Source: Candidatus Altimarinota bacterium (GTDB taxonomy: Bacteria; Patescibacteriota; Gracilibacteria; BD1-5; UBA6164). From it: a stretch of 64,000 bases of DNA. The stretch lies in NCBI GenBank assembly GCA_020631485.1, contig JAHDHC010000003.1, positions 10,792 to 74,791 on the forward strand, written 5' to 3'. The position numbers and the translations under genes were made by a program. Below the pieces are notes generated by a model. That model did not search any database, had not been told where the DNA came from, and was given only the letters and a program-made list of their open reading frames with translations. How positions within the stretch are numbered: the first letter of the stretch is position 1; each line of letters begins with the position of its first letter. Positions 24,581-41,792 of this stretch are shown here, one piece after another.

Positions 24581-25846
24581 ATGAAATACAAAGAGGTAGT
24601 TGAACAACTGAAGGATCTCATATACACATGAGATAATATACAAAAAGTATGTGATTATATCATCCTTTGAGCGGTATTATGAGGAGCATCAGATATACAT
24701 ATAGAGCCACTCAGTTCCTATGTACGTTTGAGATATAGAATAGATGGTGATTTGAAAGGTATTTTAGAATATCAACCATTTCTTCACCAAGGAATCGTTG
24801 CCCGTTTTAAGATATTATCAGATTTAAAAATTGATGAATCCCGTATCCCACAAGATGGGAGAATTAGTCAAACGATTGATAAAAAATCTCTTGATCTCAG
24901 AGTTTCTACACTCCCAACAGTACATGGAGAAAAGATTGTTATGAGAATAGTAGACAAGTCTAAGAAAATCCCAGAATTATGAACCTTGTGAATAGAGTGA
25001 AAAAATAAGCGCTTAGTTCTCTCTGCTATTGAACTCCCAAATGGTATTATATTGACAAGTGGACCGACAGGATCATGAAAATCAACGACACTTTATTCTG
25101 CTCTCACGCTCATGAATAAGATTGATATAAATATAATGACTCTTGAAGATCCAGTAGAAAATCAGGTTGATGGGATCAATCAGTCTCAAGTAAAACCAGA
25201 TATTTGATATACCTTTGCATATGGTATTAGAACCGCTCTTAGACAGGATCCAGATATTATTATGGTATGAGAAATGAGAGATAAAGAAACAGTAGATATT
25301 GCAATCGAAGCATCATTGACATGACACTTAGTATTGTCTACTATCCATACAAACTCTGCGGCTGAGACGATTACAAGACTCTTAAACATGTGAGTACAGC
25401 CATTTTTGCTTCCAGCAACTATGAATATCGTAATAGCTCAAAGATTGATAAAGCGTCTATGTTCGTGTAAAAAACCTATCCCATTAAAGGATTTGTGAAA
25501 AGAGGCTATCAAAAATGTCACAAATGCTATCAAGCTCACTCCACGTGAAGAACTTGCCGAAAGAGTTGCAGATAAACTTAAAAATCCTGTTTTTTATGAA
25601 CCAGGATGATGTGAGAAATGTGAGAATACTGGATATAAATGAAGACTTGGTTTATATGAAGTACTTGAAATTACTCCATGAGTAAAAGATATGATATTAA
25701 ATAACCAGTCAGCTTTTAACATAAACAGAGAAGCGATTAAAGAGTGAATGATTTCATTAGAACAAGATGGTATACTCAAAGCGCTCAACGGTGATACTTC
25801 ACTCGAAGAAGTATATTCAGCTGCAAAAACACAAAGTGAAACATAA
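24581..25846 (+). CDS. pilB: type IV pilus assembly ATPase (GspE/PilB family), short form without N-terminal GSPII domains
   Basis: ASDIHIEP, RLRYRIDG, Walker A GPTGSGKSTT (third Gly is TGA at 25076-25078), DPDIIMVGEMRD, TGHLVLSTIHTN, tetracysteine CSCKK...CEKCENTGYKGR. 421 aa. Confidence 0.92.
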
Positions 25847-25859
25847 CTAATATAGATCC

Positions 25860-26981
25860 ATGGAACACGAAAATACAGAAAATACCCAAAACTGGGAAAA
25901 AAGAAAAACATTCTTTGATTCTTTTAACGAATCAATGGCTATAAAACAAAAGATGCGACTTAAATCAAAACTTATGTTTTATAGATTTATGTCTACCATG
26001 GTCGATTCAGGTATGTCTCTTATAAAATCAGTAGAAGTTATCAGATGACAAGAAAAGAATAAGACAGTACAGATTATGCTGGAGGATGTTATTGCAAATC
26101 TTCGAGCTTGACAGACACTCTCAGCCTCTTTGTGAAAATATTATAATACTTTTTGAAGTTCAGAAGTGGCAATTTTAGAATCAGGAGAAAAAACATGAAA
26201 GCTGAATTCTGTGTTAAAGGATCTTGCAAATCAAATAGAGAAAGTATCCAGTATTTCATGAAAGATAAAAGCAGCCCTGATTTACCCTGTTGCGGTTATA
26301 CTGATAGCATTTGCAGTTGTAGTGGTTATGATGGTGTTTGTTGTGCCGAAGTTATTAGAATTATTTACAGATGCAAATGATCTTCCAGCTGTTACACGTG
26401 CACTTATAGCTACCTCTGATTTTTTTATCAATTCATGGTATCTTATAATTATTGGTTTTTTTCTCATAGTCGTTTTTACAAAAGCGTGGTGAAAAACTAA
26501 AGAGTGAAGATATTATCTTGATTATATTATGCTTAAGCTTCCTATTTTTTGATGACTTACAAAAAAGGTAATTCTCTCAAAGTTTGCGAGAATTCTTTCA
26601 GGGTTGCTCTGAAGTTGAGTTTCTGTTGTTGAGTCTTTAAAAATCGTTTCAGAAGCTTTATGAAATGAAGTATATAGGCAGAGAATAATGCTTTTACAAA
26701 TGGATATAAAAAAATGAATTAAGATATGGGAGTCTTTAGATGGTGATAAACTTTTTCCCCCTATGTTAGTGCAAATGGTTCAGATATGAGAGCAGACAGC
26801 AAAACTTGATTCAACTATTGTGAAGATTGCAGATTTTTATGATGAAGAAGTCGATAATGTTGTTTCTATAATAAACAAGCTCCTGGAGCCAATAATAATC
26901 GTTTTTATTGCAATGGTTGTTTTGTTTATAGCATTATGAGTAATGCAGCCGATAATGTCCCTAACTGAGCAGATTCAGTAA
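25860..26981 (+). CDS. pilC: type IV pilus platform protein (GspF/PilC family)
   Basis: Two T2SSF-type repeats: FYRFMSTMVDSGMSLIKSVEVI...ILESGEKTGKLNSVLKDLA and FARILSGLLGSGVSVVESLKIV...MVQIGEQTAKLDSTIVKIADFY, plus three TM segments. 373 aa. Confidence 0.9.
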
Positions 26982-28502: not shown

Positions 28503-28534
28503 TCATTATTTTTATTTCTTAAATATTGTTTCAA

Positions 28535-31500
28535 ATGAACGTATTTAAAAAGATCGTTGCTGGTGCATCTATCTTCGCTGTTGCTGTAGTTTCTACTGCT
28601 TCAGGAGTTAGTGCATACACGAACGCTCAACTAGATGCAGCCAATGGGCTTGCATGAATGGGGATCATCGTTGATCACTCAAACGATCCAATGGCTTACA
28701 ACATGGATCAAACCGTTTTGAGACAAGAAATCGCTGCAGTTGCAAGAGGTGTCTACGAAGTAGACAACTCTATGGCAGTAAATGCTGCAAAAGCAGATTC
28801 TTGTACAAACGCGTTTGCTGACGTATCAGCTACAAACCCAAATACTTGGGCTTGTTATACAGTTGAAGGATTATTAAACAATAACCTTATTGCTGCTAAC
28901 CCTAACTTTAGACCAGAAGAAAACATCACGAAAAGTGAAGCTCTCGGTATGGTTGTAAAAGCTGCTTGTGGAAATGATTATTCATATGATCCATCAGCTA
29001 CAGGTACTTGGCAAGCACAACTTGGAATGTATGCTACTGCAAAAGGTATTGCTACATTCTCAGACTATAATACTGCTGCTACAAGAGGATTTACTTTTGA
29101 AGCTGCTGTAAATGCTATGAATGCTTGTGGAGATTCATCAGATGATACTGATAGTCTTCTCGATGATCTATTAAATGATCTTGGAGGTGACAGTAGTACT
29201 GATACAGGAACTGGAACTACAGGAACTGGAACTACTACAGGAACTGGAACTACAGGTACTACTCCTACTACTCCTGTTGTTACAGGTGGTACTCTTGAAG
29301 TAATGCTTTCTCCAGATACTCCAGCTTCTGCTACTATTCCAGGAGGAGTTAATGGTCTTCCAGTTGCTTCTTTTGATTTCACTGCTGGTGATTCAGATGT
29401 TACTATTTCACAAGTTACAGTAAAAAGAACAGGGCTATCTGATAGCGCAACTATTGAATATATTGCTGCATTTACTGAATTAGGAAGAGCTTCTAATCAA
29501 AAAAATGACAACCAAGAGAACAATACTGAAGCTCAACTAAACCTTTCAGGAGGATGAGTAGTTGTTCAGGCAGGTCAAACAAGAACAATTACCTTTGTTG
29601 TTGATATTCCTTGTGTAAATGGTACTGGTTGTGATCCTACAGTTGAATCAGATGAATTTGCACTCGAACTTGTTGAAGTACAAGCTTCTGCTACTGTTAA
29701 TGCAGTATGAGGACTTGAGGCAAATCTTATGAGAGTAGGTTCTGTAGATGCTCCTGAAATTACTATCAACACAGGTGGAGGATCTCCTGATCCAAAAATT
29801 GGTGAAGAAGGAGCTGAAATATTTGAGTTTGAAATAGATGGTTCTAACAACGAAGATGTTATTCTTAAAGCTATTACATTCGAAGGAAATGGAAACGCTG
29901 AAGATGATCTCATGAACTTCGAACTATACTATGAAAATACTCTTGTAGCTACTACTGCATCTATGAACGATGATTACCTTACTTTCAACCTTGGAAACGG
30001 AGTAACTATCGAAGAAGATAAAACAGAAGATTTTACAGTAAGAGCTGACGTTATTGAGGGTGCTGGTGATACTATCCAATTTAAGATAGACGCTGCACTT
30101 GACGTAACTGCACAGTCAACATCATTTGGATATGGAGCTGCTGTTGATATCAGCAACGTAACTGGATCAAACAACTTTGGTTCTATTACTATCGAAGCTG
30201 GTGAGCTTACTCTCGTAGAAGTTGAACCAGAATTTGACGAAATTAGAGAAGACAAAGACAACATTACTCTTGGTGGAGTAAAAATTACTAACGTAGCTGG
30301 ACAAAACCTAGAATTACAAGAATTTGGTGTAAAAATTACTATGGACCCAAATACTGCAATGGTTGGATCTAATCCAGCTGTACCTGCTACTGTATTTGAA
30401 GATGTAGAACTATACTCTGAAGACACAGGTTCATCATATGAACTTTCTTCTACGAGTACTGGTCTTTCTGCAGTATACTCTGATACTGGTATAGATGTTA
30501 TCATACCACAAGGTACGACTGAATGGTCTATAAGAGCAGATACTGTTGAAGATATAACTGATTTTGATAATGTTAGATTTACTCTCTCTTTCGTTACTGG
30601 AAGTGTAGGTGCTAACGGTGGTTTTTATGTAGAAGAAACTGAAGATAATACTCCAGTTACTGATATAACTCCAAGTTCAATAACTTTCAACTCTATTGAT
30701 GGTTCTGAATCAGGAGTACAAGTATCACTTACTCCACTTGCTGATACTGATGTAGTAAGAGGTGCTGATGAAGTAGTTGCTCTTCAATTCGAAGTAGAAG
30801 CTGAAGAAACAAGTGATGTTGTTATTGATGAAGTTACTGTAAAAGTTGCTTCTGCTACAGCAGCTAGTGGTGTTGCTTCTAACCAAGAAGTAGCTGAAGT
30901 TAAACTTTACCAAGGATCTGTTGCTCCAGGTAACCTCCTTGATTCTGAATCTGGTTCAAACATTAACACTACTTCTGGAGAAGTAAGTTTTGATGATATG
31001 GGTGAAATTATGATTGACGCGAACACTACTGAAACATTTGTAGTAGTTGTATCTTTCGTAGATAGCACAGATGCTGTAACAAATAGTGACTATGTTGTTT
31101 CACTTACTGGACTTGATGTTGAAGATGATGAAAATGATACTATTACAGTTACAAACCTTCCACTTGTTTCTGCAAGAGATATAACTGTAAACAACGCTGG
31201 TACTATTATTCAACTTGCATTTGACGCTGCAAACGCTGATAACGAGTTTAATAAACAAGGACTTGCTGGTGATAACATTGTTATTGCATCTTACGACGTA
31301 AGAGCTGATAATGAAGAGGTTGATGTTGAAACAGTTACATTTACAATCGCTGGTGCAACTAATCTTGCTGATGCTGTTGTAAACGCAACTCTTCTTCTTG
31401 ATGGAGTAGCACTAGAGACTAACTCTAACTCTGATATTACAGGTTCTACAATTGTATTTGATGACCTTACAAACCTTATCATTCCTACTACTACTTCTGA

Positions 31501-32107
31501 ACTAGCTTTGAGACTTAACACTGCAAACATCGGTGACGGATTTGTATGAGTTGCTCAAACTGGACTTACAGTTTCTAACGTAGTACTTTCAGATGCTGAG
31601 GGTGTTGATTCAGGAAAAAACCTTGCTGTTGCTGATATAGCTGCACAAACTGGTGGATCTTCTAAAACACTTGATATCGTAAGTGCTATAGTTACTCCTG
31701 CTGTTACTGACGAATTTGGAACTGATGACTCAACTGCTGAGCTTAGACTTGTTGTTGACGGTGGAATCAATACAGATTCAACTGGTAACTCTGTACAAGC
31801 TGAACTTACAGGTCTTACATTCGAAGTAACAACTGTTACAGGAACTGTTCCTGCTACAATTACTGTATTAAACTCTAATGATGTAGTTGTAGGTAGTAAC
31901 AACTTCAGTGCCGCTGGTACTGTTACAGTAGCTGTTTCTTCTGATTCAATCGGGAACGATGACGAAACATATACTATAGAAACTACAGGTGAAGCTATCT
32001 TCAGATTAACAAGTAACGGTGTTGCTTATACAATCAATGGAGGAGGTTCATTTACTACTCAACTTGATAATAACCTAGACCTTGGTCAAAATGCTAACTC
32101 TAACTAA
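28535..32107 (+). CDS. S-layer-type cell-surface protein (1190 aa): signal peptide, SLH-like region, Thr/Gly linker, many beta-sandwich-like repeats
   Basis: MNVFKKIVAGASIFAVAVVSTASGVSA signal peptide. FADVSATNPNTWACYTVEGLLNNNLIAANPNFRPEENITKSEALGMVVKAA fits the SLH consensus (F.DV...WA....L...gii.g...F.P...iT..EA). Linker DTGTGTTGTGTTTGTGTTGTTPTTPVV. Repeated modules of the type ...FEIDGSNNEDVILKAITFEGNG.... Strongly biased GCT/ACT/GGT/GTA codon use. Only 4 in-frame TGA. Followed by tandem terminators. Confidence 0.8.
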
Positions 32108-33879: not shown

Positions 33880-36024
33880 ATGAGTAAAAAAACACCACTC
33901 AATATGGTGAGAAATATCGGTATCATTGCCCACATTGATGCGGGTAAAACGACGACAACAGAGCGTATATTGTATTATACAGGGAAGATTCATAAGATTT
34001 GAGAAACTCATGATGGTGAAGGAACAATGGACTGGATGGATCAAGAAAAAGAAAGAGGTATTACTATTACTTCAGCAGCTACAACAGCTTTTTGGAAAGA
34101 TCACCAAATCAATATTATTGATACTCCAGGGCACGTTGATTTTACTATAGAGGTTGAAAGATCACTCAGAGTTCTTGATGGGGGAGTTGCAGTATTTGAT
34201 GGGTCACAATGAGTAGAACCACAATCAGAAACAGTATGGAAACAAGCAGATAAGTACAGTGTACCAAGAATCTGTTTTGTAAACAAGATGGATAAAATGG
34301 GTTGAGACTTTGACATGTCAGTAGACACTATCAAAAAAAGACTTGCTGGAAACAAAGTAGTTGCGATTCAATATCCAATAGGTGCATCAGAAACATTTGA
34401 GGGTATTGTTGATATCATCGAAATGAAAGCCTATCACTTTGAAGGAGACAGTTGAGAAAAAGTAACAGAAATCGATATCCCAGCTGATATCAAAGATAAG
34501 TGTGAAGCGCTAAGACTTGAGCTCATGGAAAAAGTAGCAGAGCAAGATGAAGCACTCATGGAAAAATATTTTGAAGAATGAGAGCTATCAGTAGACGAGA
34601 TCAAAAAAGGACTCAGAGCGTGAGTATGTAAGAACGAACTCTATGCTGTAACATGTGGATCAGCACTTCAAAATATATGAGTACAGATGGTAATAGATGC
34701 TGCTGTAGATTTTCTTCCTTCTCCAGTAGATGTAAACGAATGAAATCTCACAGTTAAGGATGAAAATACAAAAGAAGAACTCAAAACATTTCAAATAGGT
34801 GATGATACATCACTCGCTGCTATTGCTTTTAAAGTAGCAACTGATCCATTTGTCTGAAAATTGATATTTACAAGAGTATATTCTGGTACTTTGAAAGCTG
34901 GATCATATGTGTATAACGCAACTTCAGGGAAAAAAGAAAGAGTTTGAAGACTCCTACAAATGCACTCAAACTCAAGAGAAGAAATCCAAGAAATTTCTAC
35001 ATGATGTATTGGGGCTATAGTTGGTCTTAAAGATACAAAGACATGAGATACTCTCTGTGATATGAATGATAAATTTCTCGTAGAATCAATAGAGTTTCCA
35101 GAGCCTGTTATTTCTATCTCAGTTGAACCAAAAACAAAAGCTGATCAAGAAAAAATGTGAGTTGCCCTCAATAAACTCGCAGAAGAAGATCCGAGTTTTA
35201 GAGTAAGATCAGACGAAGAAACAGGACAAACGATCATATCAGGTATGGGAGAACTCCACCTTGATATTATTGTTGATAGAATGAAACGTGAATTCTCAGT
35301 TGAGTGTAATGTATGAAATCCACAGGTTGCCTACAGAGAGACGATTAAAAATACTGCAACAGATGTAGAACATAAGTATTCAAAGCAATCAGGTTGAAGA
35401 TGACAATATGGACATGTAGTTGTCACTTTTGAGCCGTATACGTTTATGGACGAGGAGGACGAAAAAGCTGAACTCGCCGAGAAACCTACAAACAAGTTTG
35501 TAAATAAGATTACAGGATGAGTTATCCCAAAAGAATATATCCCTGGTGTAGAAAAAGGACTGAATGAAGCATACAAAAGATGATTTGTGGCATGATACCA
35601 AATGGTTGATATCAAAGCAACACTTACATTTGGTTCATTCCATGATGTTGATTCTTCTGAATTGGCCTTCAAAATAGCTGCTTCAAAAGCATTTCAAGAA
35701 GCTTGTAAAAAAGCTCAAGCTACTATACTTGAACCAATCATGAAAGTAGAGGTAAATACTCCAGAAGAGTATATGGGTGATATAATAGGACAGATCAATT
35801 CAAAAAGAGGAAGAATCGAAGAAATGGGACAAAGATGAATGGCAAAAATTGTAAATGCATTTGTACCACTATCTGAGATGTTTGGATACTCTACAGAACT
35901 TAGATCTGCGTCTCAATGAAGAGCAACATACGCGATGGAATTTGATCACTACAGTGATGTGCCTTCAAATATAGCAACACAAATACGTGAAGAAAGAGGT
36001 TTTGTACTCCCAGATGACGAATAA
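33880..36024 (+). CDS. fusA: translation elongation factor G
   Basis: [36 protein letters not shown] (the Gly of KIGE is TGA at 34000-34002), [44 protein letters not shown]. 714 aa. Stop TAA at 36022-36024. Confidence 0.97.
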
Positions 36025-36086: not shown

Positions 36087-39000
36087 TTACATATCAACAA
36101 CGATTTTTGCAACATATTCAAGTTTTTTGAGTATGGCTTCATTATCAAGGTTTTCTTTTTGAAGTTGATATACACGCTCGAAGAGTTTGTCTTTTGCTTC
36201 TTCTTTATTTTCTTCATCGATTTCACTAAAGAATTTTGCTATAACGAGTCTTAGTCTTTTTTCAGCTACTTTCGTGAGTTCTTGTGTTACTTTTTCCTTG
36301 TTTTGTGTTTTGTTAGAACTACTTTTGAGTTTCGCTTGTACTATCCATCTTCCTGCAATTCCTCAGATTGGAGTACAGGTAAAGAGTGTGAGATGAGGAA
36401 CAGCAAATCCTTCTTGGCTTAAAACTTGTGTATCATCTGGAGTAGTATTATAGGTCTTTGTGATCGTATGCTTTCTTAGATCATATTCTCACTTTTTCCC
36501 TGAAGTACTAAGATTTTTATTTTTTCTGGTAAATACCCATATTTCTTCTCCTTGATCAAGGGTAGGAAGAAGTCCAAATATAGTATCGTATTTCCCATTA
36601 TTTTCTTTCCAGTAACTTGAGTGCCCAAATATAACAGAGTTTCCAGTATATTCTTTTCATTTTCCAGCACTGAGTCCTACAGGAAGAGTTCCAGGATACT
36701 GCATTACTCACTCATTGAGATATCTCAAGTAGTTTTTTCATCCCTGAAGACTAAAGTCTTTTATCTGTGTTCCATCATTTACGATATCTTCATAATCACT
36801 TGTATTTTTAGGAACATATTTTAATGGTACAACAACTCAAAGACTTGGTATTACGATATACTCATCTTCATTTCTATCTTCGCTGTATGGAAGTACTGTA
36901 TTTTTCCAGTAATCAATATCTTCGCTCATTCCAGGTTTTGCCCATTTTGGTGGTGTAATATTTATCCTAGGGTGAAGAATAATACTTGTTCTCTGTGTGA
37001 GAGGAGTTCCACTTTGTGGGAGCATTTTTGGAAACTTGAAGAGGTTTGGAAACGGTATATACATAGGTGGAGTTTCCTTTTTTATAGGATCTGGCATAAC
37101 AGGAAGTATTGGAAGCTCAGGCTCTACCTCAGGTTCTGCAATAGAAGGAATAATGTAGACCGTTGGGTCCTCAGTTGTACCAGTTGTATCTGGATTTTCA
37201 ATAGTTTCTGGTTCTATAATAGTTTCTGGTTTATTTTCTGTATCATTGTTTGGAGAAGTACTCGCATCAGAAACATCTCCGACTATTACCCCATCTGGAC
37301 TTTTTCAAGAAACACTTGCAGTGTTTTCTATTCCACCCATATCCATATCTTCTTGTGTTAGGATATAGCTCGCAGAATAACTTGTTGTATCTGTTTCTCC
37401 CGGAGCAAGACTTGCGATTGTTTCTCAAGTCACTTGTACTCATGGAAGTGAAGTATCACTAAGAGTTATATCTGTAAGTACAACATCTCATGTATTTATG
37501 ATTTCAAATTCAAAATTTACGGTATCTCATGCTCCTATTTCTCCATCATTATTTGTATCTTCTACACTACTCACTCATTTGTAGAGTTTCATCGAAGGAT
37601 TCTCTTCAGGTTCTGGCATTGGTGGGATACTTGTTCATCCTCCTCCTCATCCTCCACCAGATCATCCTGTGCTTGGTGGTTCAGGGATTATAAGAACTGT
37701 TGGGTCATTGGTTGGATCTGTATCAGTTCCACCAGTAGCATCTGGTGTCTCTTCAAGGTCATTTCCATCATCTGATACATCACTTACTTCTTCACCTTGA
37801 GGAGAAGTACCTTCAGTGATCGCAGTGTTTTGGAGATATCATTGATCTACATCAGCTTGAGTGATTTGGTATCTAACTTCACATGTTGCTGTTTGCCCTG
37901 GAGTGAGTCCAGTTGCAGCATTTACAGGAAATGTACATGATGATGTTATATCTCATCTAAACATAGGATCATTGAGTGTGATGTCTGAAACAGTAACATT
38001 TCAAGTATTTGTAATCACAAAAGTATAATCTACAAGACTTCCATTTCTTGGAGTTTGATCCAGAAATAATTCGTCTGTTTTATACAGTTGGAGTCTTGGC
38101 ATAGGAGGGATAGTGTATTCTGTTGGATCACTTGGTCCTCCAGTCTCAGGTGGATTATTTACTGGATTATTTTCTGGATCAGTACTGGTATCAGAAGTAT
38201 CTTCAACTACTGTTCCACTTGGATCAGTTCCAGAAGTAGTAGCAGTATTTTCAATTCATCCAGCATCAACATCAGCCTGTGTGAGCACATATGACGCTGA
38301 GAAGTTTGTTGAATCAATTTCACCAGGAGCGAGGCTTGCAATAGGATCACCTGTGAGAACAATTCCAGTAAGAGAAGTATCACTGAGAGTGATGTTTGTA
38401 AGAGTAACGTTTCCAGTATTTTCAACAACAAATTCGTAATTCACTGTATCACCTGCACTGATCATATCGTTGTTATCAGTATCTTCTATGCTACTAATTC
38501 ATTTAAATAGTTGAATAGCTGGCATAGGAGGGATAGTGTATTCTGTTGGGTCATTTGGTCCTCCAGTTTCCGGTGGGTTATTTACTGGATTATTTTCTGG
38601 ATCAGTACTGGTATCAGAAGTATCTTCAACTACTGTTCCACTTGGATCAGTTCCAGAAGTAGTAGCAGTATTTTCAATTCATCCAGCATCAACATCAGCC
38701 TGTGTGAGCACATATGACGCTGAGAAGTTTGTTGAATCAATTTCACCAGGAGCGAGGCTTGCAATAGGATCACCTGTGAGAACAATTCCAGTAAGAGAAG
38801 TATCACTGAGAGTGATGTTTGTAAGAGTAACGTTTCCAGTATTTTCAACAACAAATTCGTAATTCACTGTATCACCTGCACTGACCATATCGTTGTTATC
38901 TGTATCTTCTATGCTACTAATTCATTTAAATAGTTGAATAGCTGGCATAGGAGGAACAATAAATGTTGTTGGATCTTCTGTTGGATCAGTATCATCGTTT

Positions 39001-41792
39001 GGATTTTCTCCTAATGGATTTTCTGTTTCTGTTCCGTCAGGATTATTTATTTCATTATTGTTTGAATCAGTATTAGCGTCGGATACATCTTCAACTATTG
39101 TTCCATTTGGATCAGTTCCTGAGACACTTGCTGTATTTTCTATTCCTCCAGCATCTAGATCAGCTTGTGTGAGGACATAGGTCGCGCTATATGTGCTAGT
39201 ATCTACTTGGTTTGGGGCAAGTGTTGTTATTGGTCCTCAGCTTACTGTGATACCCGAAAGAGATGTGTCTGTGAGTGTGATGTTTGTCAGTGTGACATTT
39301 CATGTGTTTTCGATACTGAACTCATAGCTTACTGTATCTCATGCTTCTACAACACCATCGTTATCATTGTCACTCACGCTGCTTACTCATTTGTAGAGTT
39401 TAATTGCTGGAGTTGGTCCTATTGGTTTCGTAACCTCATCTTCAGCATCTTCAAGTGTTCCATCAGTTGGAGTTCCACTTGCACTTGCAAAATTGTAGAC
39501 TTCACCATCATCTGCTTCTGTTTGTGTTACAGGGATAGATGTACAGGTATATGTCCATGTTTCGTTCGGACTTAATATACTGTCACTATTTGTATCTGTT
39601 GAACTATCAAGTGCTGGAGCACTTGCACACTTCGCATCAGTGAGGGTGATAGCTGATATATCTGTATCTCAAGTATTTTCAAGCTCAAAAACATAATCGA
39701 GCGTGTCTCCTGCTTCCATTGGGGTAGAATTGGTAGTTTTTTCAAGAGACCAGCTTGGCGCAAGAAGTGTTATAAGCGCATCATTTGATCAGCTTATATT
39801 ATCACCATCTTGTATAGCTTGTATAGGAGTTCTTCCGGTGCTTGTGTCTACATCAGAATCGAGATCTGGATCACTTCCTTGAGAACTTGGAGAAAAAGCA
39901 TATCATGCAGGAAGATCAAACTCTACATAGTAGTTTCCAGGAGTAATATCTGAGAAAACGTAGTTTCCATTTGCATCTGTTGTTGTAGTGTCTATAAGTG
40001 TTCCTGTAGAGTCATAGAGCTCTACCGTTGATCCACTAAATCCATTTTCACCAGCATCTTGAATCCCATTTCCATTGGTATCTATCCAGAGGTCATCACT
40101 GATCGTTCAAGCGGGGATTGGAACTATGAGTGCATCATTTGCTCCTGTAACTGTTCATCAAGAAATAGCTTGAACAGGAGTTGCTGCTGTAGTTCCGTCT
40201 ACATCAGAATCTAGATCAGAATCAGATCCTTGACCACTTGGTGCAAAAGTATATCATGCAGGAAGATCAAACTCTACATAGTAGTTTCCAGGAGTGACCC
40301 CTAAGAAAACATAATTTCAATTTGAATCGGTTGTTGTTGTATCTACGAGATTTCCGAGAGAATCACGTAACTCTACTGTAGATCCACTAAATCAACTCTC
40401 ACCAGCATCTTGGATTCCATTTCCATTGGTGTCTATCCAGAGCTCATCAGTGATAACTGCTAGTTCGCTGAATGGGAAGTCTACATCCGTGACATTTGCT
40501 CAGTCTACATCAGCTTCAAGTGGATTTGTCCCTGAAAGGCTAAATCATGCAGGGATATCAGTATCGCTAGTGTCTACTTGTATGAGATAGTTTCCACTTG
40601 CTGCATTGAACATATAGCTTCCATCTGGTGCGGTATCTGTCGTAGCAATAACCATATCTGCACCATCTATGATTCCATTATTGTTGTTATCTGTGTAGAG
40701 TGAGAGTCTCACGCTTCCTATTCCTGTTTCACTATCCTCTACTCCGTTTCCATTGGCATCTTCAAATACTTCACCAGTAATAGTATAATTAAAACTGAAG
40801 AATCCAGCTGTACCCCCATATATGTCGGCATCAGCTACGTCACCTGAGGCTGATGTATTGGTTGGATAAGTTGTATAGTCAACCACATCTACTCACGCGA
40901 GGAGATTATTTGGCTGCGTATCATCATAGAGGTCTTGAGACATATATGAAAATCCATAATAGGTTTGTCATGGAGACAGTCAAAGATCATCTGCCGTTAC
41001 AAACACCATTCATAAAGATTCTTCTAACGAATAGTCAAATACTGGTCATGTCTGAGGGGGATTTTCCTCATTGTCTAGAAAACCATTATCACTCGAGAAA
41101 CTCGTAATAGCATATCTGATTGGTTCACTAGTCTGAGAGGCTTGCCATATCTTTGTAAGTGGTCCATATGATGCAGGATCTCCATTTGAATCAAGACTGA
41201 GAATAGGAGATATGATCATATTATTGTTTCATGATTTCTCTGTTACTAGATGCCCTGAATTTTGAAAGTCGGTAGTATTTGCAGAGAGATTGATTCCATC
41301 GTTGAAAATAAAATCTATTCTTTCTATATTATTTTCATTTCATTCTTTACCGGGAGTTTCCAAATTTGCAAATACGTCAAGCGCTCAGATGTTTATGATT
41401 CTTCATGAAACAATTTTCGCAATGTCACAATTATCTCAAGCTCCTTGAGGATAACTTGGTCAATATGTGTAATCATCACCATTCAACTCAACAAAGAGTC
41501 TACATCTTTCTCACGTTACTTGCGCGTTATCTACCCTTCTAACAAGTACTTCATCTGCTACTATAGAGGGAGAAAATGTCCCCGATGCAGTAGTAAAAGT
41601 ATCGAGATGCACATCGACTCATGTTCACCAGTTATATGTCTGACCTCATACTGTATATGAAGTTGGAACTCATGGTGTGGTAAAAGTAGTAATACTTGTT
41701 ACTCATTGGCTGGAACCATATACGGGGCTTGTTAGAGGTCCAAATACCAAAAAGAATAGTAATATCATACTTATTATTTTTTTCGTATTCAT
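36087..41792 (-). CDS. giant secreted adhesin-like protein (1901 aa) with a C-terminal sortase domain in the same reading frame
   Basis: Minus-strand frame checked triplet by triplet from 41792 to 36090: no TAA/TAG, about 54 in-frame TGA, stop TAA at 36087-36089. [26 protein letters not shown] signal peptide. About 330-aa N-terminal domain. Three SdrD-B/Cna-B-like modules ([27 protein letters not shown]...; [29 protein letters not shown]...[15 protein letters not shown], twice). Six DUF11-type repeats (LYKGVSS..GDTV.YEF...[13 protein letters not shown]...YVLTQAD.DAG). Pro/Gly linkers. Sortase domain and a Lys/Glu-rich helical tail. Confidence 0.85.
36327..36863 (-). other. sortase catalytic domain (part of the giant CDS)
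   Basis: [14 protein letters not shown]...[12 protein letters not shown]...[12 protein letters not shown] (His codon 36621-36623)...GEEIWVF...[12 protein letters not shown] (Cys codon 36375-36377)...GRWIVQAKL (Arg codon 36348-36350). Order and spacing match the sortase His-Cys-Arg triad. Confidence 0.8.
38097..38942 (-). repeat. near-identical 423-bp tandem duplication (2 copies, in frame, one DUF11 repeat of 141 aa each)
   Basis: 38097-38519 and 38520-38942 differ at only a handful of positions. Track ORFs repeat exactly at a +423 offset: 38113/38536, 38207/38630, 38256/38679. Confidence 0.9.

Follow-up and report, generated by a model that had tools for sequence, protein, structure and literature searches.

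A gene on the minus strand of a 64,000-nucleotide stretch of contig JAHDHC010000003.1 from a Candidatus Altimarinota bacterium (we call the whole stretch the window and number positions from its first nucleotide) encodes a fibrillar adhesin of 1901 amino acids in which an LPXTG-type sorting motif, LPQSG, is followed on the same chain by a sortase domain. Sortases are known from textbooks as membrane-anchored enzymes that act on separately encoded substrates. We propose that in this protein the motif and the sortase form a self-contained covalent anchoring module, with the fused sortase processing its own chain; judging from sequence comparisons, we put the probability of this reading at roughly 0.55. 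An earlier reading of the same DNA, made from its letters without database searches (the original prediction), had speculated that the enzyme might act in cis or in trans and had overlooked the motif at the junction. The conservation of that motif gives action in cis strong, if indirect, support.

LPQSG is the protein's single LPXTG-type motif. It lies between the adhesin and the sortase, 54 amino acids before the first sortase strand (YIVIPS, at amino acid 1645), and it is the only LPX[TS]G in any open reading frame (ORF) of at least 80 amino acids in the window. Instead of the transmembrane helix and basic tail of a canonical C-terminal sorting signal, it is followed by 306 amino acids of soluble sortase and helical tail. 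The end of the preceding linker (..FKFPKM) provides the conserved hydrophobic-Pro-x-x positions immediately before the motif. The gene and the parts of its product are:

36087..41792, minus strand: the whole gene in genetic code 25, 1901 codons (54 of them UGA, read as Gly) and a TAA stop.
41715..41792, minus strand: probable signal peptide, amino acids 1-26 (MNTKK... to TSPVYG, with cleavage before SS; -3/-1 rule judged by eye), the sole hydrophobic segment (Kyte-Doolittle score 2.18).
40788..41714, minus strand: orphan N-terminal head domain, amino acids 27-335, a putative adhesive tip, with homologues in surface proteins of other bacteria.
39804..40778, minus strand: three SdrD_B (CnaB-type) stalk domains, amino acids 339-435, 447-544, and 563-663 (Pfam).
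37281..39761, minus strand: six DUF7507/CLIPPER_2 stalk domains, amino acids 678-779, 795-902, 950-1057, 1091-1198, 1232-1338, and 1398-1504, with Pro/Gly/Asp-rich spacers (Pfam).
38097..38954: tandem duplication of 423 bp, 2.0 copies that are 98% identical, corresponding to CLIPPER_2 repeats 3 and 4.
37023..37280, minus strand: Pro/Glu-rich linker, amino acids 1505-1590 (from the sequence).
37008..37022, minus strand: LPQSG, amino acids 1591-1595, the LPXTG-type sorting motif, with the proposed cleavage site between Ser and Gly (position conserved in relatives).
36327..37007, minus strand: sortase module, amino acids 1596-1822 (Pfam, alignments, and the fold of a relative).
36090..36326, minus strand: Lys/Glu-rich helical tail, amino acids 1823-1901 (alignment and AlphaFold models of relatives).

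Because one motif in one protein could be there by chance, we tested whether its position is conserved. A homology search with the C-terminal 326 amino acids returned 29 relatives, many of which have LPQTG, LPKTG, LPQSG, LPKMG or MPRTG in the motif column. An exhaustive profile search of 1.84 billion cluster representatives gave 180 matches below 1e-30; among the best 150 of these 180, many are 850-3805 amino acids long and have the sortase domain at their extreme C terminus. We call members with a long N-terminal extension fused, and those with only an N-terminal hydrophobic segment ahead of the sortase stand-alone. A first census found the motif in 35 of 44 long-extension members and in 0 of 19 short members that have just a hydrophobic segment at the N terminus (Fisher p = 1.1e-9). 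Eight of the nine exceptions carry LLKTG, LIKTG, LAQTG, LGDTG, LLAVG or LTDVG in its place, and the ninth is a membrane-anchored form. When the censuses were pooled, the motif was found in 81 of 84 fused members (68 strict and 13 variant) and in none of the 29 stand-alone members.

Species-representative genomes gave the same picture: across 31 loci, all 24 long-extension members have the motif and none of the 5 short stand-alone sortases does. These loci, often several per genome, come from metagenome-assembled genomes (MAGs) labelled Gracilibacteria, Absconditabacterales or Peribacteria, except for two loci in one "uncultured bacterium" MAG. Re-translated with code 25, the loci include 18 complete fusions of 492-2400 amino acids with N-terminal signal peptides. 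Fused and stand-alone forms occur together in the genomes CALLPL01 and PDRA01.

The sequence around the motif is conserved as well. Its extended consensus is hydrophobic-P-K-x-L-P-[KQ]-T-G-[TA]-P-[IL]-x-x-[RK], and the distance from the motif to the first strand has a median of 56 amino acids across the family (interquartile range 55-58). The motif's glycine is present in all 82 unique contexts, if we count the 21 that are printed as W in the source, which we read as UGA translated with code 4. Outside the junctions LPxTG is rare: there are 33 occurrences in 399,000 amino acids of ORFs, and most of these are the junction motifs themselves. The lineage also has a canonical substrate (at locus L028), which ends in ..NNLPQTGPENIVVIVLSFFLGIIIMLVLRRKKS before its stop codon, that is, LPQTG, a transmembrane helix, and RRKKS. 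Since this canonical substrate carries LPQTG, we take LPQTG to be a real sorting signal in this lineage. The substrate gene (L028 13146-14885, plus strand) lies about 2 kb downstream of a gene for a 2399-amino-acid fused adhesin-sortase, in a Gracilibacteria MAG from a dolphin mouth, and its cargo weakly resembles that of the fused proteins P0179, P0176, and P0174 (E = 5e-7, in a small local set).

A neighbour-joining tree built from the catalytic core shows stand-alone clades nested among fused ones, and the stand-alone proteins P0011, P0014, and P0019 have the degenerate sequences IPQKE, NPQKD or IPLKE in the motif column. From these two observations, motif and architecture appear to have changed together more than once.

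The cargo varies across the family (MucBP, SdrG_C_C, SpaA, SdrD_B, CLIPPER, TSP3, and Bact_surface_Ig-like domains) and the C-terminal module is constant. In the databases, these proteins are labelled only "sortase", "LPXTG-site transpeptidase (sortase) family protein" or "hypothetical protein". The smallest members, P0181, P0184, and L010 (9377-10876), have 440-492 amino acids and consist of a hydrophobic N terminus, a GYGYGYG low-complexity spacer, LPQTG, the sortase, and the tail. In one sub-clade (P0003, P0006, P0048, and L003/L004 9215-11560), an acidic linker, SLH, and PG_binding_1 follow the sortase and replace the helical tail; the genes of this sub-clade sit amid other genes for Bact_surface_Ig-like/SLH surface proteins.

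Two further loci carry interrupted copies. A 218-kb JGI contig encodes tandem adhesin-LPQ[TA]G-sortase paralogues (L001 992-4214 and 4458-11624). The first copy, with LPQAG, has a frameshift about 30 amino acids past the motif, and its sortase part was called as a separate gene of 261 amino acids (P0009); the second copy is intact and was called by JGI at 2388 amino acids. At L002 (7808-10981), an in-frame TAA/TAG stop parts a 618-amino-acid cargo gene from an LPQSG-sortase ORF in the same frame. P0038 (1050 amino acids) and L026 (1066 amino acids) are intact counterparts, and the stop could be a pseudogene mutation, a strain variant or a sequencing error.

Amino acids 1715-1822 match the Pfam family Sortase (PF04203) with 38.5 bits (gathering cut-off 26.6; E = 1.1e-9). 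The catalytic residues are His1724 (36621-36623), Cys1806 in LTLFTC (36375-36377), and Arg1815 in GRWIVQ (36348-36350). In family alignments of 28 and of 93 sequences, Cys and Arg are invariant and His is nearly so (at least 90% conserved). The module begins with a conserved segment, right after the motif, that is conserved in the stand-alone members also. A sequence search of the PDB with the module gave only marginal matches to class D sortases (E = 0.2-0.6), so a fold search was needed to confirm the fold. We used the AlphaFold model of the nearest relative, P0001 (58% identical), which has a predicted local distance difference test score (pLDDT) of 80. Its top 50 fold hits in the PDB (Foldseek) were all sortases, with probability 1.00 and TM-scores of 0.51-0.71 (normalised by target length). 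The fold evidence thus comes from the model of P0001 and extends to our protein by homology; a second relative, P0181, was modelled as well. Together, the Pfam match, the fold search, and the alignments point to a true sortase fold at the C terminus, its triad intact.

We rejected membership in the curated sortase classes A-F of NCBIfam, as the best scores were about 20 bits and the class cut-offs are 140-165: class E 20.1 (cut-off 160), class D 17.0 (165), SrtD 17.8 (140), and class C 16.1 (160). The generic model TIGR01076 scored 17.3 (39.35). Fold hits of P0001 to class C sortases were not stronger than its hits to classes A, D, and E, and the class C lid signature DP[FWY] is absent from amino acids 1596-1645. 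A membrane anchor N-terminal to and adjoining the catalytic domain is typical of sortases, if not strictly defining; here, about 1590 amino acids of adhesin precede the domain instead.

The rest of the protein has the layout of a fibrillar adhesin: tandem stalk domains and a distinct terminal head. The three SdrD_B domains have a Pfam E-value of 4.8e-65 and the six DUF7507 domains one of 4.7e-137. DUF7507 has since been renamed CLIPPER_2, a stalk domain with a predicted intramolecular isopeptide bond (bioRxiv 10.1101/2025.04.25.650565). The 423-bp duplication within the stalk is either a recent repeat expansion or a spot where short-read assembly could miscount copies. According to the alignment, the helical tail is kept in one subfamily, to which some stand-alone sortases (P0008, for instance) also belong, and in AlphaFold models of two relatives it forms 3-4 helices, mostly with pLDDT above 90; we found no Pfam or PDB identity for it. 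A hydropathy scan of the whole protein found one hydrophobic segment, at amino acids 6-24 (2.18 in a 19-residue window; the next-best windows are at most 1.36), and hence no transmembrane segment before or after the sortase domain and no hydrophobic window past amino acid 24.

Most of what the original prediction said about this gene therefore stands: an adhesin frame of about 54 UGA-Gly codons (there are exactly 54) that runs without TAA or TAG into a complete sortase with the His, Cys, and Arg residues, three SdrD-B modules, a helical Lys/Glu tail, and no transmembrane segment ahead of the sortase, the only hydrophobic stretch being at the N terminus. Its six repeats are also present; it had called them DUF11, which Pfam matches as well, and they are better named DUF7507/CLIPPER_2.

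The original prediction also suggested that the N-terminal signal might act as an anchor, which would leave the sortase at the far tip of the stalk. Several observations speak for the opposite orientation. The N terminus of the protein has n, h, and c regions and a V-Y-G cleavage site (..SPVYG before SSQG), as judged by eye. The 18 complete relatives have AXA-type sites (for example SVSA before AP, TYA before VD, and ARA before DD), and all of these N termini look like cleavable type-I signal peptides. The head domain (amino acids 27-335) has no sequence match in Pfam or the PDB, and its homologues (36-48% identity, 91-100% coverage) are N termini of surface proteins from Sulfurovum (marine Campylobacterota), Granulosicoccus (Gammaproteobacteria), and others. 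More distant homologues (28-32% identity) are in proteins that end in a type IX secretion system (T9SS) sorting domain. Because the head is shared across phyla by proteins with differing C-terminal modules, it is probably a mobile adhesive module that is paired with lineage-specific sorting modules. This suggests that adhesin heads are exchanged horizontally, and perhaps gives a hint on habitat or hosts. Gracilibacteria are described as having no outer membrane, a complete peptidoglycan synthesis pathway, and S-layer proteins (PMC6851277; PMC11452946). Along with this envelope, the cleavable-looking signals, the C-terminally sorted homologues of the head, and the SLH and PG_binding_1 domains that follow the sortase in some paralogues would put the sortase end beside the wall of the organism itself, with the head pointing away from it. 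The proposed N-terminal anchor is thus not supported, and no result here points to the action on another cell's envelope that was also suggested.

We propose the following mechanism. The adhesin would be exported by Sec and its N-terminal signal peptide removed. The sortase domain would fold outside the membrane, where its own LPQSG, about 12 flexible residues before the structured part, would be its nearest substrate; we infer that the domain recognises this motif because motif and fusion strictly co-occur. By the established sortase mechanism, Cys1806 would attack the Ser1594-Gly1595 bond and hold the adhesin as a thioacyl intermediate. An amine would then resolve the intermediate, and the most likely acceptor would be the peptidoglycan of the same organism or a precursor of it. 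In this way the adhesin would be bound covalently by its C terminus with its head outward; sortase and tail would either leave or remain associated with the wall. A molecule might make the first cleavage in its own chain, or one copy of the fusion might cut another. As every adhesin molecule brings its enzyme along, it would not require a membrane-anchored sortase. Motif variants within genomes could not distinguish action in cis from action in trans, as there are too few multi-copy genomes and the variable position is the non-specific X.

Several points weigh against this proposal. Our protein has Ser before the scissile bond, a minority variant that is found in 4 of the 82 contexts. The motif segment is modelled with low confidence (pLDDT below 50 in P0001 and 41-67 in P0181), so the models speak neither for nor against its docking in the active site; the P0181 model does have a confident helix about 15-35 amino acids upstream of the motif. 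The tree that nests stand-alone among fused clades lacks support values. The minimal members P0181 and L010 are nearly cargoless, with only a Gly/Ser/Tyr-rich spacer, and adhesin anchoring fails to explain them. A secreted sortase with no membrane anchor would not be placed next to lipid II, which makes the acceptor uncertain, and an enzyme of about 300 amino acids that perhaps turns over once per molecule would be costly. Last, the lineage also has a canonical substrate and stand-alone members of this sortase subfamily, sometimes in the same genomes, so another enzyme might do the cutting.

This last point leads to the alternative that the junction motif is cut by a separate stand-alone sortase and the fused domain does something else, which we consider unlikely. 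Stand-alone sortases of this subfamily are found in Gracilibacteria, also in fusion-bearing genomes (L024/P0008, L025, L029, and L036), the substrate with LPQTG, transmembrane helix, and basic tail is there, and the AlphaFold models of relatives show no docking of the motif in the domain to which it is joined. The fused domain might then be co-secreted or released to act on other substrates, or might be a folded stopper that replaces the transmembrane helix and basic tail; both roles seem doubtful to us. Cutting by another enzyme leaves unexplained why the domain after the motif is a sortase with invariant Cys and Arg and nearly invariant His, why the spacing is fixed at 55-58 amino acids and the flanks of the pentapeptide are conserved, and why stand-alone sortases have invariably lost the motif. 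Furthermore, tethering would present the motif to its own active domain at a very high local concentration.

If the fused sortase does cut its own chain, the thioacyl intermediate might be resolved by an amine of another protein (giving fibres, or attachment to the S-layer or a pilus) or of a host or prey envelope, as a covalent harpoon. We regard this as quite improbable. Published work describes the lineage as dependent on hosts and its relatives in culture as predatory (PMC11452946). The cargo domains are of adhesin types, the best structural matches include the pilus-polymerising class C sortases, and an enzyme without a membrane anchor would be free to act away from lipid II. Yet the SLH and PG_binding_1 domains after the sortase of some paralogues point to the organism's own wall, and once the signal peptide is removed, bridging two cells would need a second attachment to the adhesin's own cell. 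By eye, no pilin-type Lys motif (YPKN) is evident in our protein, and no systematic search for one was made. More broadly, and with as little confidence, the cassette could be seen as a portable, membrane-free ligation module that welds the C terminus of an adhesin to an amine beyond the reach of membrane-anchored sortases; such an amine might, at a stretch, be on the outer wall or S-layer, on another copy of the adhesin (giving covalent fibres) or on a host or prey envelope. If this were true, it would give the first example in nature of a surface protein that ligates itself, and a new way for epibionts from the Candidate Phyla Radiation (CPR) to attach covalently to other cells.

Class C sortases and the SrtA of C. 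diphtheriae have N-terminal lids over their active sites. The LPXTG-like segment might likewise be an uncleaved pseudo-substrate lid that regulates a stalk-tethered sortase, which comes close to the picture drawn by the original prediction and which we think very doubtful. These lid-bearing sortases are among the best fold matches, and the segment past the motif is conserved in stand-alone members too, but a regulatory lid should persist in those members and the motif is in 0 of 29 of them. The motif also matches the lineage's genuine sorting signal, the lid signature DP[FWY] is missing, and nothing would hold the stalk if the N-terminal signal is cleaved, as it seems to be. Finally, it is extremely improbable that a missed stop, a frameshift or a chimeric assembly joined separate adhesin and sortase genes: two relatives are interrupted (the first L001 copy after the motif, L002 upstream of it) and the 98%-identical stalk duplication could confuse assembly, but both interrupted copies have intact counterparts (the 2388-amino-acid paralogue for L001; P0038 and L026 for L002), the duplication is more than 1 kb from the junction, and the architecture recurs in more than 80 independent sequences from JGI, ENA, NCBI, and Logan assemblies, including the 18 complete genes.

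A self-sorting adhesin, as we propose, can be compared with several known systems. With canonical sorting (such as that by SrtA of S. aureus) it shares the fold, the His-Cys-Arg triad, TLxTC, the type of pentapeptide, and, probably, the signal peptide of the substrate. It differs in that enzyme and substrate are one polypeptide, with the motif first and then the enzyme, and in that the enzyme has no membrane anchor and falls outside classes A-F. The "subfamily 6" of Comfort & Clubb 2004 and the proteobacterial dedicated sortase systems reportedly consist of one-to-one sortase-substrate gene pairs in Gram-negatives. There, as here, one sortase is genetically linked to one substrate, but the genes are separate and adjacent and the sortase is membrane-anchored. 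By analogy, such a pair would become an in-frame fusion like ours after a deletion between the substrate's motif and the sortase ectodomain. Hedgehog/Hint-type C-terminal domains form a (thio)ester at their own N-terminal junction and transfer the cargo to a nucleophile in a single turnover. This is an analogy only: fold and chemistry are unrelated, and we claim no homology. In engineered self-cleaving fusion tags (BISOP, PMC2901362; PMC10334657, PMC10726597), a sortase and LPXTG are on one chain and the enzyme cuts its own fusion. These tags are artificial and have the order enzyme-LPXTG-target, in which the target is the Gly-side fragment, whereas in the natural order cargo-LPXTG-enzyme the cargo is the acyl donor and would be ligated.

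Other fibrillar adhesins with CnaB/CLIPPER stalks have the same plan of a head, a tandem SdrD_B/CLIPPER_2 stalk, and a C-terminal anchor (bioRxiv 10.1101/2020.12.07.414375; bioRxiv 10.1101/2025.04.25.650565). The anchors quoted from a survey of fibrillar adhesins are Gram_pos_anchor, SLH, CHU_C, Por_Secre_tail, LysM, choline-binding, YadA_anchor, OMP beta-barrel, and others (bioRxiv 10.1101/2020.12.07.414375); a module of motif, sortase, and tail is not among these quoted anchors. As quoted, the same survey sought sortase motifs in the last 50 residues only (bioRxiv 10.1101/2020.12.07.414375), so it would miss a signal at the junction.

The enzyme and the motif are known; what is new is their conserved natural arrangement, cargo-motif-enzyme, on one chain. 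The original prediction knew of no such adhesin-sortase fusion, and we likewise found no natural substrate-sortase fusion and no analysis of Gracilibacteria sortases in the searchable literature (which omits most subscription journals); all that came up were engineered fusions and brief mentions of "a sortase" encoded by CPR bacteria and by a Gracilibacterium. A conserved, lineage-wide family with substrate, sorting motif, and enzyme on one chain would imply surface anchoring that is stoichiometric and possibly single-turnover, and it suggests how CPR bacteria with a single membrane might display giant adhesins. It also defines a sorting signal that current predictors miss, as they check for LPXTG in the last ~50 residues only, and the natural cargo-LPXTG-sortase cassette could serve for self-ligating protein tags.

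The reading frame of the gene depends on the genetic code. From the ATG at 41792 to the TAA at 36087, the frame spans 5706 nt, in which TGA occurs 54 times and neither TAG nor an internal TAA occurs. Throughout the window TGA is read as sense: with table 11, ORFs of 100 amino acids or more sum to 4,344 amino acids, and with only TAA and TAG as stops to 32,095. We did not find a suppressor tRNA-Gly(UCA) within the 64-kb window, so we settled the meaning of TGA by homology. In an alignment of the window's EF-G (33880-36024) to the solved structure PDB 3zz0, the 21 TGA positions are mostly opposite conserved glycines (for example at kiGeth, ervGrll, tGtGdtl, and qsGGrGqyg). Within the adhesin gene, TGA codons of one repeat pair with GGN glycine codons in its sister repeats. 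These alignments indicate that TGA encodes Gly here, which is genetic code 25. We also considered a separate sortase gene expressed from an internal promoter or start, and rejected it: there is no minus-strand promoter-like site in 36900-37400, and no hydrophobic anchor after any internal Met.

The neighbours of the adhesin gene are housekeeping genes (EF-G, RNase Y, EF-P, UvrA, GatA, and type IV pilus PilB- and PilC-like genes). The latter, an ATPase of type IV pili or type II secretion (T2SSE, 5.5e-123) and a platform protein (T2SSF), are at 24581-26981 on the plus strand, about 10 kb from the adhesin gene, and the two ORFs upstream of them may be pilus-assembly genes. At 28526-32107, also on the plus strand, is an ORF of 1193 amino acids with a signal-peptide-like N terminus and Thr/Gly-rich spacers, for which we found no Pfam or PDB identity. 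It has only 4 UGA codons, versus 16-54 in neighbours of similar size, and its local GC content is higher (0.372). One possibility is an S-layer or surface protein that is highly expressed and shows codon bias; another is a recent acquisition.

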